Notes under the pieces: generated by a model
Databases searched by the model: none
Told to the model about the DNA's origin: nothing
Seen by the model: the letters and a program-made list of their open reading frames with translations, nothing else
Program-made: the position numbers and the translations under genes
IMG/VR virus record: IMGVR_UViG_3300031555_003522
Span: 143,862 to 207,861 of that record
DNA: 64,000 nt
Reading direction: 5' to 3' (one strand)
From: a virus
Taxonomy: Duplodnaviria > Caudoviricetes
Shown: positions 1 to 57,293 of the stretch, one piece after another
Numbering within the stretch: position 1 is the first letter of the stretch
How the letters are laid out: each line of letters starts with the position of its first letter

Positions 1-121
1 AAATGGGGAGCGTCCTATAAACGGTAACAGAATATAGGATGATGATATAGTCTAATCTATATGGTGACATATAGCAGCTTACAAGCGGTATAAGATTAAC
101 GACCTTATATGAATAAAAATG
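1..121 (+). mobile_element. Group I self-splicing intron, 3' part only (window starts inside it); interrupts DNA polymerase motif A
   Basis: P3' AAATGGGGAGC, P8 hairpin, S element GATGATATAGTCTA, P9 hairpins, terminal G at 121 directly followed by TTT GCT TCG CTA TAC CCA TCT (FASLYPS). Confidence 0.85.
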
Positions 122-20021: not shown

Positions 20022-20724
20022 TTAGAACTGAATCATATTTGTAGAATTATTATTAGAGCCACCTCTAAATATTCCGATAGATTCTATCGGGAAACCCTTC
20101 AGATTGTTATTAATGATTTCATCATAATTAACAAATGGAAGTATCCAAGCAGGAACTGGTTCATTTAGAGGAATAGCTATAGCATCTATTCCAGTAGCAT
20201 ACTCTTTCTGCTTCATAAGCTCCACAGCCTTTTCATATACATAAGGATGAGACTCTCTAATTCTATCAATATTCTTAGGGGTTATATTAACTTTAGCAAC
20301 ATCGATAGAATTCCGAATACTCATATCCAATGCTTCTGTCCCAGGCTCATGAAGAGCATTATAAGCTTGAGATGCTACTATACCTTGAATTCTCATGGGA
20401 TTTTCATATGCTGATAGAGATTTTACCTTAAGAGGCTTAAAGAATTTCTTCTCACCACTCTGAATAGATTGATATATTTTCTTTTCCTCTTTAGCCAAAT
20501 CTCTAAGAACAACAATAGGATCTATAGATTCCACATTCAATATATCTTCTGCAAGTATTCGCTTTAAGTCAGCCTGAATAGTTGGATTGACTGTAGACTT
20601 AACAAATACTTCCATGCCTTTTGCATCAATAGATTTTGCATCAGGAACCTGGTTTCCTTCCTGAAGCTCAACCTTATATGCATAGTGTTTCTTTGCATGA
20701 CTAGATAGAAGAACACGCTTGAAT
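20022..20724 (-). CDS. DNA polymerase exon 6 (KKHY motif, thumb)
   Basis: Reads FKRVLLSSHAKKHYAYKVELQEG..KGMEVF into ORF 20022..20615. Confidence 0.85.
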
Positions 20725-23700
20725 CGTTTATTACTTTATATCACTATAAAGACTAGACTATATCTTCATCTTAAATACTATTACCATATTTGAGATGCTC
20801 CCCATTTCGAACTCTATCAAGAGCCCTACTCTACTCGGTTATTCTCATAGATCTTTCTTCTATGATATCCTTTCGATAGTCGTTGAACCTTCCTCTATTG
20901 AGGCTTGGCTGCTGATTGTCTCAATGAGAGTTCCCAGCAATTAAAGGAGATTCTACATAATGTCACCACTATGCAGCCCTATTCTTAAGGAATTCGTTCT
21001 TCATTGTAATTAGGCATGCACGCTCATTATCAGAGTGAGCATTTGTGCAGTATCTATCCATAAAATCATTCAAAAGAATACCTACACAATATGCAAGAAT
21101 ATTTATAATGGAATATCTTAATCCATCCTGAGGTATAATTACCATTGGGTCAACTAATCTATCCATCTCAATCATATCATCATCAACAAAACTATATTCT
21201 GTAACCTTTCCAATTACAGGTTCTGTCTTTATTTCTCCATCATCGATAAACGTAGCAGCATCTACATTTTGTGTCTTAATCTTCATAGGAATCTCACAAC
21301 ACATTTGTCTTACATACTGATACCATCCATCAAATGATACAATTGCACTCGCTTTGTTCATATAGGATCGCAACTCCATACAGTTCTCTTATGAACTTCT
21401 ATATGTTTCCATATAGGCCAGACTATATCATCACCCTACTATGGGTGCCTCCCATTTCGATTTAAAAGGTCTTATTTGGACATCGCCTTACCCCATTATA
21501 AGCTTGGGCTCTACTCTACTAAGTTCATCTATAGATGCTTTTCGATAGTCGTTGAACGTTCCTCTGTGCGAGGATTCGCTGCTGATTGTCTTTTATAAAT
21601 TAATAAGAAGATTTTCCAGCAATTAGAGAGGTTATCGACGCATGTTTCCATGCAAAGGGACGTAAATATCTTCATCCGTGTCCTGAATAATACTGACAGA
21701 TCTGACTAGAGAATCCATCTTAGCCAATCTATCAATAATCTGCTTATTATAATATACATACTCATACAAGATATCTGTTAGAGCTTTAAGCGGCTCTATA
21801 ATATTCTCTGGAGGCTCATTAGGATCCATAAATGGAGCATCGAGACTCTGAAGTATGAATAGTATAGCTTGTGTGACAGGAGCGTTATCAATGAAATGAT
21901 ATAGATTATTCTTATAGAAGAGTCTATCGAGTTCATCTTGATTGAGCTTAGATAGAATTTCCCAAATTATATGCATTTCATCTTCACTAGGCACCCATCC
22001 ATATCCAGTACTAGAAAGTAACTGGAAGAAGGTTTCTTCAATAGAAGCATGAATAGTAATAATACCATTACTATTGAAATGATGCTCTTCTGTAAGCACC
22101 GTATGAATAAATTCAACGAGTTCATTCATGGAACTCATTGGTACATTATTATTTAAGAAAGATTCTAGGAATAGCGCGGCAGCACTATTGCAAGATCTAC
22201 CTTGAGTTGTAACACTGGAAGCAGTATAAAGATTATAGAAAATACAAGAATACTGCCCAGTAGCTCCATAAACAATATATTCAAGTGGTTCATTACTCCA
22301 CCCAGTTCTCTTATGAACTTCTTTAGCTTTCACCAAAGTTTAGACTATATCTTCATCCATAAAGGATGTCCAGTACAGGATCTCATGATTTGAGACCTCT
22401 TAGTCGTTGAACCTTCCTATTTCTAGGCTCGGCTGCTGATTGCCTATTGTACCATCCTTCTACTATTTCCATTTAGGCAAGAAGGCTTTAAGGTGTCCCA
22501 GCAATTCTCTGGATTTAATCGATACCATTACTGGTAAAGTGGACCTTAGTTAATCCATTCATCTGGAGCTTTAAAAATACCATCATTTTCATGATGGGTT
22601 AGACTATATCTTCATTCATTTAAGAATGGTCTCTGTTTCGAGCATTAAGCCCTACGTCTTTCGACTAGTCGTTGAACGTTCCTCTAAACAAGGCTTCGCT
22701 GCTGATTGTCCAATCTCTATATTTTCAAACATTCACGATTACTCTTTCAAGTTGCGTTGTAGTTATAGAGCTCTAAGGAGTTTCCAGCAATTAAGAGACT
22801 TTAACGACACCAATGGATTTAATTTAGCGTCGATCTTACGCAAGTACCTCATATCGCTATGAGGGCTAGACTATATCTTCATCTATATCTCTATTACCAA
22901 GATATAGATGCTCCCCATTTCGAGTTCACTAGAACTCTACTCTACTCGGTTATTCTCATAGATCTTTCTTCTATGATATCCTTTCGATAGTCGTTGAACC
23001 TTTATAAATCAGAATCAGTAATACAGAATTTCATATTAGTTTTTTCTTTCACAACTATGGCTACAATCTGATATTCATCTCTGTATACTATTTCAAGATT
23101 AGAACCATCAGACTCTAATCTTATCACATTGATGCTTTTATTCAATGCCGCTTTCTTTATTTCTCGAATAGCTTTATTGAATTTTCGATTACCTTTCTCT
23201 GTAAAGTAAGATATAGTACCATGAAGTATATCAAAAGGTCTTTCTAAATATCTATCAAAATACCATGATAATCTAAATGCTTCATCTTCATCGAAGATAT
23301 CATCGAGACCAACAAGAATTCCAGTATGTGGTCTACTACACCCAGATTCATATTCATATCTATAATACACATATCTCACTTCCTTTCTGATTTATACTTG
23401 GCTGCTGATTGTCTCAGTGAGAGTTCCCAGCAATTAAAGGAGATTCTACATAATGTCACCACTATGCAGCCCTAAAATTAAGGAGTAGCTGAAGTAGATT
23501 ATATTTCTCAAAATCTTCAGATCCTTTAGGATACTTGAACATTTCTTTCTTCATAGCTTTTCTATCATTTATAAAGCCATCGATCATTCCATACAGTGGA
23601 TTAGGAACAGTTCCGTGTCTCTTAAACAATACACCATAGGAAGTTATAATAGGTTCTTTATCCATGATATAGTTTGCCATATAACTCAAGGTAGAGTTGA

Positions 23701-23908
23701 TTTGTTTGTGGGTATAGTTATTATCCACCACCACAGGAGTATCTTTAAAATGTTGCGAAATAGACCAATCTATTGCAGCAGATAATTCTCCCTCAGATAG
23801 TAGCGGGAAGTTAAAGTGCAGCATATCCATACATATTCGCTTGTATTCTGCTAGTGCTTTTACATCCGGATATGTCGCATATACTGTTCTATTCGTTATA
23901 AAACCCAT
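20022..23908 (-). CDS. Family B DNA polymerase catalytic (motif B/C) subunit, spliced from 6 exons: 23908-23481, 22838-22826, 22559-22553, 22272-21674, 21349-20988, 20724-20022 (703 aa)
   Basis: Exon lengths 428+13+7+599+362+703=2112 nt in frame; reconstitutes QLLLKIDANGFYGATG (motif B), QDTDSAIV (motif C) and KNEFLFKR..KKHYA. Confidence 0.9.
20725..20987 (-). mobile_element. Group I intron pol-I5 (263 nt, no ORF)
   Basis: P AATTGCTGGGAA, Q AATCAGCAGC, R GTTCAACGACTA, S AAGATATAGTCT; P1 CCU/GGG with U.G; P10 GAAU/AUUC; ends in G. Confidence 0.9.
20988..21349 (-). CDS. DNA polymerase exon 5
   Basis: SAIVSFDGWY...ITMKNEF; part of ORF 20969..21379. Confidence 0.85.
21350..21673 (-). mobile_element. 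Group I intron pol-I4 (324 nt, no ORF), splits DTD|S
   Basis: P/Q/R/S elements present; P1 GGAU/GUCC; terminal G followed by AGT (Ser). Confidence 0.9.
21674..22272 (-). CDS. DNA polymerase exon 4 (YG of motif B to DTD of motif C)
   Basis: YGATGQYSCIFYN...SIIQDTD; part of ORF 21632..22336. Confidence 0.88.
22273..22552 (-). mobile_element. Group I intron pol-I3 (280 nt, no ORF)
   Basis: P AATTGCTGGGA, Q AATCAGCAGC, R GTTCAACGACTA, S AAGATATAGTCT; P1 UGGAU/GUCCA; ends ..ATATTG. Confidence 0.88.
22560..22825 (-). mobile_element. Group I intron pol-I2 (266 nt, no ORF)
   Basis: P/Q/R/S present; P1 GACGCU/GGUGUC; P10 AAUCCAUU/AAUGGAUU; ends ..CCAGATG. Confidence 0.88.
22839..23480 (-). mobile_element. 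Group I intron pol-I1 (642 nt) carrying an ORF in the P6 loop
   Basis: P/Q/R/S present; P1 CCU/GGG; P10 AUUUUA/UAAGAU; core nearly identical to pol-I5. Confidence 0.9.
23002..23379 (-). CDS. Intron-encoded protein of unknown function (no homing endonuclease motif recognised)
   Basis: 125 aa with AAAGGAAG RBS, enclosed by a 12-bp stem (23003-23014 / 23385-23396); no LAGLIDADG, GIY-YIG or HNH motif seen. Confidence 0.7.
   Translation of the reverse strand: MRYVYYRYEYESGCSRPHTGILVGLDDIFDEDEAFRLSWYFDRYLERPFDILHGTISYFTEKGNRKFNKAIREIKKAALNKSINVIRLESDGSNLEIVYRDEYQIVAIVVKEKTNMKFCITDSDL
23481..23908 (-). CDS. DNA polymerase exon 1
   Basis: ..NDRKAMKKEM..YNLLQLL, pre-motif-B helix; AGGAGAG RBS; AACT-N6-TA at 23936-23947. 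Confidence 0.88.
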
Positions 23909-54647: not shown

Positions 54648-57293
54648 TTAATTAGATTCTGGCATACAATATACACCAATTTTATTGATGTTGCTTATAG
54701 CTCCTTTAAGCATAGCGTCATATCCATCAGGACCATCAGGGTCTATTGTAATAATTACATTACAATTCTTACCACTGCTAGATAGCTTAATAGGATTAGA
54801 AGTTATCTGTAAGTGGTTGGAATTTGTATCCGCATTTTTATCTGCAGATATTCCACTTACATCATCAATCTTTATACCCAATTCATTTTCGGCTCTATCT
54901 ATCATTCTTATAGCAATAGCTTTATTTGTATGGGTATTTTTCGAATCACTTCTTTCAAAAGCTTTATCATCATCTACTACATCATCTATTTCGAAATCAT
55001 CTACAACAGGTTCAGTTGAAGTGAGCTTTCTAAGATTGATTTTGAATCTAGGAAGATTTTTCATATCGAATGTCTTAAAATCGACCTTAAAATATCCTCT
55101 AGTACCAACAAAAATTATATCTTTATCTCCCCATGCCTTCCTGAGAGCCTCAGGATTGGTACGTATAAGACGCAAGATAATTGAAATTGGATTTAGATTT
55201 TTCCTAAAGTCGTATAAGTCACTCATAGGCTGTGCGGGCCATACACCTGGATCTATAGGAATAAATATTGTCTGTTTCTTATAAGAAGCATTCAATTCTT
55301 TATTATTTATAAGACGATTAATGAATTCAAAATAGAAATTAACGGCCTTATCTAATTTGAACTGAATATTCTTGAGAAATAGTCCATGATAGTAAGAAAG
55401 ATCTACAAAAAGATTTAATCCCTTATACATCTCTATTCTCGGATACATTTTAGTGATTTCAGGATTAAGAACTTTCATACTCTCATAATACTTCATAACT
55501 TCTCTACTATTTTTAAGGCGTTCACTATACAGATATTTTCTAAGCTTATTAGAATACATACTTTCATCACCTTCTGTGAAGATAGCCATGTTTTCACTAA
55601 TAATCATATTATCTGTATTATATAGGCCACTTTCAAATCTACTATCTGGAGTAATATGAGAAGGAAGAATATTAGGAGCCGCCATATCTTTATTTAGATA
55701 TTTCACAAAAATCTTTCTTCCATATACATCCTTATTACCAGTATCTTCAAATCCGTTGTTTCTTGCCAAATACTGAGATGCTAAATTATCATCATGAGCA
55801 GTCCAATAATATGTATTAAATCCATGCTTTATGCCGAGATCGCATCCAAGCATTTCTTTAACCATAGAACTGGCTATACCCATATCTCTATAATCATTCG
55901 AAACTGCTAAAGTAATTTGAGCAATTCCTGGAGAAGACGGGAATCTATACACGTCTAAAAATCCTGCAGGATTCCCATCTACTTTATGGATAATTCTCTT
56001 AATTATAAAAGGAGAATTCTCATATTCATTTTTGAATGTAATTCTCTTTAACTCATCTTGAGTAAGAGAAGAACAAATCTTCTGTACATCATCAAAGTTT
56101 GAACATTCTGGATTATCTTCTATAGCAGATTCCTTTGTCACTTCAGATTTAGCGCAAGTGTATTTATAGATTTTAGATTTGGTATAATAACTTCTAAATC
56201 TATTAGATGCACTAACTCTAATATCTGTCATACCAAATTTCTTAATCTGTTTGATTATATTTTCAGCTAATTCTTTTTCCTCATCAGCATCGCAAGAATT
56301 AAACATTTTTATTGCTAATCTTACATGCTCTTCATCATGTATAGGATACTTCCTTTTATCTGGTATACCAAATTGAGAGGGGAGCAATCTCTGTCTTTCA
56401 GAGTAGCTTAGACCCTCTGAGAATATCTTACGAAAAGCCATAATATCATTACCAATAATAAATTTGGTAAATATTCTTATATCTGCAGTATTAATATATT
56501 TGGTTATACCACGATAGCCTTCAACCTCTGTCATTCTATTAATAACTTTTAGTATTTTCTTTTCATCGCCAAAATCTACTTGACCATTATTCTCCTTATC
56601 CCAATTGGATAATCCGGACACATTTGCTGCTATTGCGTAAACAATTTTAGCACTAAGATCTATATTATAAGATGCCATTATACAACTTGCAAGAGCAGAA
56701 GCAAGATACATATCATAAGGGCCATACATTAATCTCTCATCATATGCCATAGAACTTACCACGCAAATATGCGAATCTCTTACATAGTAATATAATTTAT
56801 CCTTATCAGACTTACCGTTATAACTCTCCCTAAGAGCTCTAATATTAGGATATACCTTAACATTAATTTCCTCTGGAATTTTCGAGAGTCCTAAAAGAGC
56901 TGCATAGTCTTTAACAAGATTGGAAGTATATATCTTTTTAAGATATCTCATATCCATCATAGATATTCCATCTTCAAATTTGATCTTAGTTTTTCCTCCG
57001 AATGCACTAATCATAGTTTCGGACAAAGTTTCTTCCTCAACAGGATCAAAATTAAGTACCTCTTCTGGTACATTTTCTATATATGCCGTTACATTCCTAT
57101 CGATATAGAAAGATCTATAGATCATTGGATTTATAAGATACGGAAGTCTCATAAGCTGACTACTAACCTCCATACTCGGGGTTAATAGAAGTATAGCAGA
57201 TCCCTTCTTTCTATCTTTCTCATTTATAGGAACATAGACCTTTTTATTGGCAGAATATAAAAATAGAGGTTTAAGTTCATCCATCATTCTCAT
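54648..57293 (-). CDS. Large late/virion protein with an internal GNAT acetyltransferase domain
   Basis: 881 aa; LAVSNDYRDMGIAS (acetyl-CoA motif A), NLASQYLARNNGF (motif B); FGIPDKRKYPIHDEEHV module; AACT-N6-TA upstream. Confidence 0.7.
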   Translation of the reverse strand: MRMMDELKPLFLYSANKKVYVPINEKDRKKGSAILLLTPSMEVSSQLMRLPYLINPMIYRSFYIDRNVTAYIENVPEEVLNFDPVEEETLSETMISAFGGKTKIKFEDGISMMDMRYLKKIYTSNLVKDYAALLGLSKIPEEINVKVYPNIRALRESYNGKSDKDKLYYYVRDSHICVVSSMAYDERLMYGPYDMYLASALASCIMASYNIDLSAKIVYAIAANVSGLSNWDKENNGQVDFGDEKKILKVINRMTEVEGYRGITKYINTADIRIFTKFIIGNDIMAFRKIFSEGLSYSERQRLLPSQFGIPDKRKYPIHDEEHVRLAIKMFNSCDADEEKELAENIIKQIKKFGMTDIRVSASNRFRSYYTKSKIYKYTCAKSEVTKESAIEDNPECSNFDDVQKICSSLTQDELKRITFKNEYENSPFIIKRIIHKVDGNPAGFLDVYRFPSSPGIAQITLAVSNDYRDMGIASSMVKEMLGCDLGIKHGFNTYYWTAHDDNLASQYLARNNGFEDTGNKDVYGRKIFVKYLNKDMAAPNILPSHITPDSRFESGLYNTDNMIISENMAIFTEGDESMYSNKLRKYLYSERLKNSREVMKYYESMKVLNPEITKMYPRIEMYKGLNLFVDLSYYHGLFLKNIQFKLDKAVNFYFEFINRLINNKELNASYKKQTIFIPIDPGVWPAQPMSDLYDFRKNLNPISIILRLIRTNPEALRKAWGDKDIIFVGTRGYFKVDFKTFDMKNLPRFKINLRKLTSTEPVVDDFEIDDVVDDDKAFERSDSKNTHTNKAIAIRMIDRAENELGIKIDDVSGISADKNADTNSNHLQITSNPIKLSSSGKNCNVIITIDPDGPDGYDAMLKGAISNINKIGVYCMPESN

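Follow-up and report, generated by a model that had tools for sequence, protein, structure and literature searches.

The stretch of viral DNA considered here (the window, 64,000 nucleotides in length) makes up the final 64 kb of a viral contig of 207,861 bp, the IMG/VR record IMGVR_UViG_3300031555_003522 of a member of the Caudoviricetes, estimated to be 84% complete, and it carries on its minus strand a divergent family B DNA polymerase gene interrupted by five group I introns. Two of these introns, I1 and I5, occupy different sites of the gene (called S1 and S5, respectively, in the window as in the relatives) and are nearly identical over a large part of their sequence; the origin of this likeness is the subject of the present analysis. 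The gene was recognised by PF20286 and phrog_2927 matches of its exon translations, and is organised as follows:

20022..23908, minus strand: host gene, divergent family B DNA polymerase, six exons and five group I introns
23908..23481, minus strand: exon 1 (E1)
23480..22839, minus strand: I1, 642-nt group I intron after the CT of Leu143 (..CUCCU / UAAGAU..), just upstream of KIDANGFYG
22838..22826, minus strand: exon 2 (E2), 13 nt
22825..22560, minus strand: intron I2
22559..22553, minus strand: exon 3 (E3), 7 nt
22552..22273, minus strand: intron I3
22272..21674, minus strand: exon 4 (E4)
21673..21350, minus strand: intron I4
21349..20988, minus strand: exon 5 (E5)
20987..20725, minus strand: I5, 263-nt group I intron without open reading frame (ORF), after the CT of Leu470 (..UUCCU / AUUC..), just upstream of KKHY
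20724..20022, minus strand: exon 6 (E6)

The exon boundaries were fixed with relatives missing individual introns (loci designated L014 and so on). Removal of the five introns leaves an open frame of 703 amino acids (aa) with the motifs KIDANGFYG, DTDS and KKHY, in agreement with the intron-less junctions of L014, L016 and L018; in particular, the I1 boundary was set by the intron-less junction of L014 and L016 together with the open spliced frame, and the I5 junction was confirmed by the intron-less allele of L018. Four of the five introns are found by Rfam at the gathering threshold, while I1 is missed because an ORF-bearing insert of 401 nt sits in its P6 stem. I5 matches RF00028 at 92.2 bits (gathering threshold 50 bits), and the two halves of I1 score 22 and 36.6 bits and align one to one, base for base, with I5. 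The whole record contains 13 RF00028 matches, 10 above gathering and 3 below, and I1 is not among them; with I1 included, 14 group I introns are recognised, splitting essential genes among which is the DNA polymerase.

Both introns follow the exon sequence CCU, which pairs with the guide GGG to form a P1 in which a U.G pair marks the 5' splice site, both end in a terminal G (position 22839 in I1, 20725 in I5), and removal of each restores the reading frame. Two co-varying hairpins, P7.1 and P7.2, lie between P7 and P3' (alignment columns 24-44 and 63-80). Double compensatory changes are seen in 23 of the 36 pairs predicted for P7, P7.1, P7.2, P8 and P9 in the 3' half of 11 introns, P7 being invariant, and the differences between I1 and I5 in P7.2, P8 and P9 are mostly compensatory. 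Judged by helices and P1, I1 and I5 are predicted to be ordinary self-splicing phage group I ribozymes of the P7.1/P7.2 type, IA2-like. I1 begins with UAAUUUUAGGG (from 23480) and I5 with UAAGAAUAGGG (from 20987), each directly after the exon ...CCU, and the two introns are made up of the following segments:

23475..23477, minus strand: I1 P10 guide triplet UUU, inside UAAUUUUAGGG (23480..23470)
23397..23474, minus strand: I1 5' shared tract (P1 3' strand, P2, P3, P4, P5, P6 base), 77/78 identical to 20904-20981
23002..23370, minus strand: 122-aa cargo ORF of I1, with a GTG start and a stop that overlaps the P6 3' arm
22937..23002, minus strand: I1 3' shared tract (J6/7, P7 5' strand, P7.1, P7.2 5' strand), 66/66 identical to 20826-20891
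22839..22936, minus strand: I1 diverged 3' part (P7.2 tip, P3', P8, P7', P9, tail GUACUUGCG), 71% identical to I5 and 85% to the L014 S1 intron
20982..20984, minus strand: I5 P10 guide triplet GAA, inside UAAGAAUAGGG (20987..20977)
20904..20981, minus strand: I5 5' shared tract, putative I1-type conversion tract, 77/78 identical to the I1 copy 23397-23474
20892..20903, minus strand: I5 own short P6 hairpin CCUC AAUA GAGG, unique to I5, in the place occupied by the ORF in I1
20826..20891, minus strand: I5 3' shared tract, identical to I1, carrying a derived G (GAAAGAUC)
20725..20825, minus strand: I5 diverged 3' part of S5 type (P7.2 tip, P3', P8, P7', P9, tail GUAAUAAACG), closest to the L014 S5 intron (81%)

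The basic description given by the initial annotation stands: the 78-nt blocks (23397-23474 and 20904-20981) differ by exactly 1 mismatch, the 66-nt blocks (22937-23002 and 20826-20891) are identical, the introns lie at different sites, both after CCU, and at the 5' end they differ by 3 nt that let each guide pair with its own 3' exon, AUUUUA of I1 with UAAGAU over 6 bp and GAAU of I5 with AUUC over 4 bp. Either guide forms only 1-2 bp with the exon of the other site. Repeats of 66-78 nt are far beyond chance in 64 kb.

Apart from its own P6 hairpin, I5 is a mosaic of an S5-type guide, an I1-type central tract and an S5-type 3' part. In an alignment of 12 S1 and S5 introns, three partitions were distinguished: positions 1-6 as the guide, the P1 3' strand through P4 together with J6/7 through the P7.2 5' strand as the tract, and the remainder as the rest. 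I1 and I5 agree at 3/6, 136/137 and 70/98 positions of guide, tract and rest, respectively; the values are 5/6, 132/137 and 81/95 for the orthologs I1 and L014 S1, and 6/6, 113/137 and 76/94 for the orthologs I5 and L014 S5. The paralogs of the window are thus closer to each other in the tract than the S1 orthologs are, and far less alike in the rest (71% vs 85%). From the P7.2 tip to the 3' end 28/98 ungapped columns differ between I1 and I5 (29%), as against 1/137 in the tract, a divergence that had gone unremarked in the initial annotation, and with gap columns counted the figures become 30/100 and 2/138 (Fisher p = 6e-11, an indicative value). The I1-type introns of L014 and L016 match the I5 tract at 96% identity, and the L014 S5 intron at only 82%. 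The first 13 nt of I5 recur unchanged in the L014 S5 intron, in which, beyond them, P2 is different and P5 has a long extension. The P5 loop A(C/U)UG and the G in P7.1 are derived states common to I1 and I5 that are not found in the L014 S1 intron, and the derived G of GAAAGAUC occurs, among the aligned introns, only in I1, I5 and the L016 S5 intron.

Trees of the partitions conflict in the same manner. The maximum-likelihood tree of the tract joins I1 and I5 as sisters (support 82/86), and the approximately unbiased (AU) test rejects the grouping of I5 with the L014 S5 intron (p 0.001). In the tree of the rest, I1 stands with the L014 S1 and L016 S5 introns (99/99), the AU test rejects I1 with I5 (p 0.006), and the grouping of I5 with the L014 S5 intron survives (p 0.37). 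Conflicting trees by segment, together with a tract more alike between paralogs than between orthologs, are the pattern expected from gene conversion.

About 20 related loci were collected from independent ENA and Logan assemblies by protein look-ups with exon 6 and the I1 ORF. A locus search with exon 4 among viral contigs returned no relatives, an exact-pattern scan of viral and metagenome contigs for the P3-P5 core gave 0 matches, and megablast against a phage collection retrieved no close genome, only short intron-core matches in Bacillus, Staphylococcus, Vibrio and Acinetobacter phages. Of the 9 loci that cover the whole gene, 8 have an intron at S5 (L014, L016, L020-23, L025-26), with an exon-6 protein 59-94% identical to the window polymerase, and only in L018 is this site empty. 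Occupancy of S5 is nevertheless not universal to judge from protein lengths, since about 24 of the 100 clusters returned by the exon-6 search are long enough (314-407 aa) for fused exons 5 and 6, which implies that S5-empty alleles also exist. S1 is occupied in L014, L018 and L023, the latter two about 70% identical in protein, and empty in L016, L029 and L020-22. Both sites are thus occupied in relatives whose host protein identity falls as low as about 59-72%. A group I intron at S5, or a few nucleotides from it, in the deep relative L035 (44% identity) was set aside, its splice sites not being placeable with confidence.

Both occupied exons end in UCCU, and intron-less alleles have no CCU at the site. 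At L016:2940-2975, L020:5330-5360 and L018:7340-7370 the intron-less alleles differ at synonymous positions in such a way that CCU is absent (e.g. CUU CUC AAA vs CUC CUU AAG). The CCU may be missing because the exon flanks were co-converted, or because its absence protects such alleles from being invaded again.

The guides proved to be site-specific when insertion sites were tabulated against them in the relatives, a check that the initial annotation had proposed. At S5 the P10 guide co-varies with the 3' exon, GAAU facing AUUC in the window, AUUU in L014 and GUUC in L020-22, AAAU facing GUUU in L023, and AAAAU facing AUUUU in L025. The S5 intron of L014 has exactly the I5 guide UAAGAAUAGGG, and those of L020-22 have it as GAAUAGGG, all of them introns that in other respects are very unlike I5; at S1, AUUUUA is present in the window and in L018, facing UAAGAU and UAAAAU, and L014 has ACUUUA. 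Because the same guides sit at the same sites in otherwise diverged introns, each guide appears to be ancestral to its own site, retained and not rewritten, and new mutation as the source of the three differences was rejected on account of the recurrence of the GAA guide in diverged S5 introns. The earlier proposal of a rewritten or retargeted guide is accordingly not supported: the relatives show both sites to be long-standing, with introns apparently homogenised by conversion, an outcome that had been named beforehand as speaking against it.

Comparable mosaics are found in other genomes, and they include reciprocal ones, with S1-type sequence at S5 and S5-type sequence at S1. In L016 and L029, which come from two samples, S1 is empty and the S5 intron has an S1-type guide (UAAUUUUAGGG or UAACUUUAGGG) and the I1 ORF; that of L016 has an I1-type P8 but an S5-type tail (GUAGUAAACG), and the L029 sequence stops soon after the ORF. 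The S1-guided S5 intron forms a P10 of 1 bp with its own exon (computed for L016). The S1 and S5 introns of L023 are 96% identical in the aligned 5' half, which includes a P5 extension of about 90 nt and an S5-type guide, because of which the P10 of the S1 intron with its own 3' exon comes to no more than 2 bp; they differ in P9, and the P9 of the L023 S5 intron resembles that of the L020-22 S5 introns. L028 carries at the I2 site an I2-type 5' half joined at CAAUCAGCAGC to an I1-type module of P6 and ORF, and in L014 the S1 and S5 introns are identical over 64 nt 3' of P6, with 5' halves only 69% alike. The signature of conversion between S1 and S5 thus recurs in the L023 twins, the L016/L029 S5 chimeras and the L014 64-nt block. 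Given the chimeras of L016, L029, L023, L028 and L014, exchange between introns at conserved core sequences would seem to be common in this phage group, with P10 mismatches that persist; the chimeras with mismatched P10 (L016, L029, L023) are natural test cases for the importance of P10 in vivo.

L023 has a further intron (L023:3819-5360), with an HNH ORF in P6, whose site is a new one that follows ..GCUACUGGU and lies 2 codons beyond the YG of motif B; this intron repeats a block of about 110 nt (P3-P5) of the S1 and S5 introns, which implies that three introns of one gene were homogenised. The S5 introns of L014 (5800-6891) and L021 (5794-6894) contain in P6 a different cargo of about 240 aa and also have the P5 extension, and the two elements appear to travel together. 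L020 and L022, with the same protein fragment encoded by exon 6, have a short, ORF-less S5 intron.

On this evidence, the twins of the window are probably the product of recurrent ectopic gene conversion between old paralogous introns at S1 and S5. I1 and I5 would use one and the same minimal P1 (CCU/GGG) to bind the 5' exon, and each a site-specific P10 guide to bind its own 3' exon, and in a recent, non-reciprocal exchange about 140 nt of I1-type sequence flanking P6 would have replaced the matching part of I5, leaving in place its guide triplet, P6 hairpin, P7.2 tip, P8, P9 and 3' tail. The direction, from I1-type into I5, is suggested by the closer identity of the I5 tract to the I1-type introns of L014 and L016 than to the L014 S5 intron. 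Since the window I5 and the L016 S5 intron both have internal junctions, the exchanges would have taken place between intron DNAs, presumably by DNA-level recombination. I1 and I5 form a direct repeat with a spacing of 2.1 kb; because a crossover would delete exons 2-5 of an essential gene, only non-reciprocal conversions would survive and be visible. The trigger may have been general phage recombination or a break near P6, both of which are candidates; the position of the tracts on either side of P6, the place of the cargo, fits breaks in that region.

Several considerations weigh against this account. The Fisher and AU p-values are optimistic because the partitions were set after the alignment had been seen, the alignments are short (92-152 columns) and leave several nodes unresolved, and among distant relatives the rest partition is not cleanly sorted by site (L018 S1 intron). 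Some heterogeneity between partitions is expected in any case, the catalytic core being slower to change than P8 and P9; to this it can be answered that the peripheral P2 and P5 loop fall inside the identical tract. The old occupancy of the sites could derive in part from horizontal homing. Finally, the donor has an ORF in P6 and I5 has not, which calls for two tracts, an ORF-less donor or later loss of the ORF.

The cargo ORF itself is looped out by a perfect 12-bp P6 stem (23396..23385 with 23014..23003), and its start, GTG in the window, is ATG in the relatives. The family comprises 13 clusters with invariant motifs that include YRY, GIL..LD and F.KGNRKF.KAI. The ORF is always located in P6 directly after CAGCAGCCAAG, in at least 4 intron contexts; together with the P6 stem, it forms a module found in the S1 intron (window, L014), in the S5 intron (L016, L029), at S2 in an intron of the I2 type (L028) and, within other genes, in introns of L030-34, with copies at L014:4290-4658, L016:6359-6727, L028:5001-5369, L030:5001-5366 and L034:5001-5366. 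The search for homologs, directed at the recognised homing endonuclease families (LAGLIDADG, GIY-YIG, HNH, His-Cys box, PD-(D/E)XK, EDxHD), gave no Pfam match, no PDB sequence match and no nuclease motif, a missing match that leaves a nuclease possible, and PHROG matches only at the weak E values of 0.02-0.035. The AlphaFold2 model, a confident one (predicted local distance difference test score 82.7), has no fold match, the best E against PDB being 0.23 with Foldseek and the best Z 3.4 with VIA-align, and a feature search of the ESM Atlas with the ORF gave nothing usable. A basic helix suggests that the protein may bind nucleic acid.

These properties bear on the possibility that the same conversion was started by the cargo protein, acting as a new kind of homing endonuclease with cleavage sites near the P6 of related introns that lack the ORF, so that repair on the template of the ORF-bearing intron co-converts the flanks whatever the exon site. 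In its favour, the shared blocks of I1 and I5 directly flank P6, the two introns of L014 at S1 and S5 have their 64-nt identity 3' of P6, and the module keeps a constant position after CAGCAGCCAAG in S1, S5 and S2 introns and in other genes. Yet the protein lacks any nuclease motif or Pfam, PDB or fold match, the L023 twins were homogenised without the 122-aa ORF, and the window copy begins with GTG where its relatives have ATG. Moreover, I5 remains ORF-less beside its ORF-bearing twin, a situation that a P6-targeting endonuclease should forbid unless the P6 of I5 is resistant or the enzyme dead. An initiating role of the cargo is consequently conceivable but doubtful, and it is likewise rather unlikely that the cargo represents a new class of endonuclease that targets the conserved intron core instead of the exon and homes from intron to intron, dragging along ribozyme flanks and sometimes the guide. 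If such a core-targeting enzyme existed, it would generate mis-guided chimeric introns and provide a DNA-level route for the reshuffling of introns and their spread between sites that have only a 3-nt P1 match in common.

Two further explanations dispense with conversion altogether. The initial annotation had favoured either inter-intron recombination, which the mosaic structure and the conflicting trees uphold, or a recent ectopic transposition such as reverse splicing. The latter would have moved the whole intron (by reverse splicing into a CCU site or by endonuclease-driven ectopic insertion), three substitutions then retargeting the guide. It would account for the location of both sites after CCU with the same P1, which fits an ancient transposition equally, and for the presence of only 3 differences in the first 64 nt, and reverse splicing needs only a short P1 match (PMC3984707); the deep S1/S5 paralogy (same P1, both after UCCU) may itself go back to an ancient event of this type. 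As the source of the recent likeness, however, it is improbable. A move of the whole intron, also one by reverse splicing followed by cDNA recombination, should give even similarity and replace the intron completely, but similarity along the introns is uneven (1/137 vs 28/98 differences), with sharp boundaries. Distant relatives have introns at the two sites with the corresponding guides, the ancestral S5 guide would have had to arise anew, without deviation, through three neighbouring substitutions, and the L016 chimera, by keeping an S5-type tail, points to exchange inside the intron and not to whole replacement. The likeness might also be an artefact of metagenome assembly (a collapsed or chimeric repeat) or the effect of purifying selection acting on the core of the ribozyme: the viral contig is of metagenomic origin, an assembler working with short k-mers could be misled by blocks of 66-78 nt, and J6/7-P7 and similar parts of the core hardly vary within the family. 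This is very hard to sustain. In each copy the blocks have unique sequence on both sides (exon and guide, own P6, own P8/P9), and the unique P6 hairpin of I5, lying between the two shared blocks, argues against collapse; the blocks are shorter than a read, similar mosaics occur in independent assemblies of other samples (L016, L029, L023), and the tract takes in the peripheral P2 and P5 loop, which differ between orthologs. Conversion between paralogous introns thus remains the preferred reading.

Other features of the gene and of the genome are worth recording. I1, I2 and I3 crowd within 20 nt of the KIDANGFYG coding sequence (22553-22838, minus strand), leaving micro-exons of 13 nt and 7 nt, and the 7-nt exon (22559..22553) must double as the P10 partner of I2 and the P1 partner of I3; genes of this kind, with five introns and exons of 13 and 7 nt, get mis-annotated as several hypothetical proteins. 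I3 and I4 (22273-22325 and 21350-21400, minus strand), as well as the introns at genome positions 54766, 55619, 57002, 107991 and 108430, have in common a 3' extension past P9, AAGUUCAUAAGAGAACUG..., that folds a GUUCAU/AUGAAC stem ahead of the real 3' splice site, and because of which Rfam ends these introns 25-50 nt too early. Another group I intron belonging to this family has its 3' half, which is 85% identical to that of I1, lying across the window start (window 1-74; genome 143769-143935, plus strand). In another gene, outside the window, the introns at C1:55109-55371 and 55391-55619 have the window-specific P5 loop CUCACUG and a P3-P5-P4 block of 43-59 nt that is 91-95% identical to I1, and the first of them follows CCU and has a UAGGG guide; homogenisation may therefore extend between genes. 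This first intron (genome 55109-55371) was considered as a donor of the tract and discarded, as it is only 83-92% identical.

The routes by which group I introns reach new sites have been argued from circumstantial cases, and reverse splicing is without direct support (PMC3984707). Twin introns at two sites are the usual circumstantial case for a recent jump, and the present locus indicates that such twins can arise by conversion between old paralogs. Multiple introns in phage polymerase genes (PMC3984707) and intron-rich jumbo phages (PMC12880540) are already documented; the novelty of the present case is descriptive, in that it documents, in nature and throughout a population, how two intron sites of a single gene swap ribozyme segments and sometimes guides. 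The locus is a good example of the concerted evolution of paralogous introns.

Among known systems, the Jug phages, jumbo phages of the gut with about 18.5 group I introns per genome (PMC12880540), resemble the present phage in being metagenomic jumbo phages with group I introns that split essential genes, DNA polymerase included; the study counts introns and describes no paralogous twins, guide swapping or inter-intron conversion (PMC12880540). A circumstantial case for reverse splicing has been drawn from related group I introns at two ribosomal DNA (rDNA) sites (Bhattacharya et al. 2005, PMC1299323, as cited in PMC3984707). That pair likewise consists of paralogous introns at different positions of one gene with the same P1-binding sequence; here, by contrast, the introns lie in a phage gene that codes for protein, their recent similarity is attributed to DNA-level conversion, and the mosaic speaks against an RNA-mediated move of the whole intron. 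The phage P7.1/P7.2 introns (IA2-like), such as those of T4 td, nrdB and nrdD, of the SPO1 and Bastille DNA polymerases and of Twort, similarly place a ribozyme in a conserved motif of an essential replication gene, and share with I1 and I5 the RF00028 core, P7.1/P7.2, an optional ORF in a peripheral stem and the presence of several introns per gene (PMC3984707). The window differs from them in having five introns in one gene, micro-exons of 13 nt and 7 nt, a P1 that reads only 3 exon nucleotides, and a cargo ORF that matches no known homing endonuclease family. Bryk and Belfort reportedly described, in Nature in 1990, how recombination at conserved core sequences shuffles domains between T4 introns. 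There too, non-allelic phage group I introns are said to exchange parts through short core elements and to give chimeras, but the events were reportedly selected in the laboratory and were crossovers that deleted the DNA between the introns, whereas the exchanges reported here are natural and non-reciprocal, take place within one gene, recur throughout a phage population and in some cases take the guide along.

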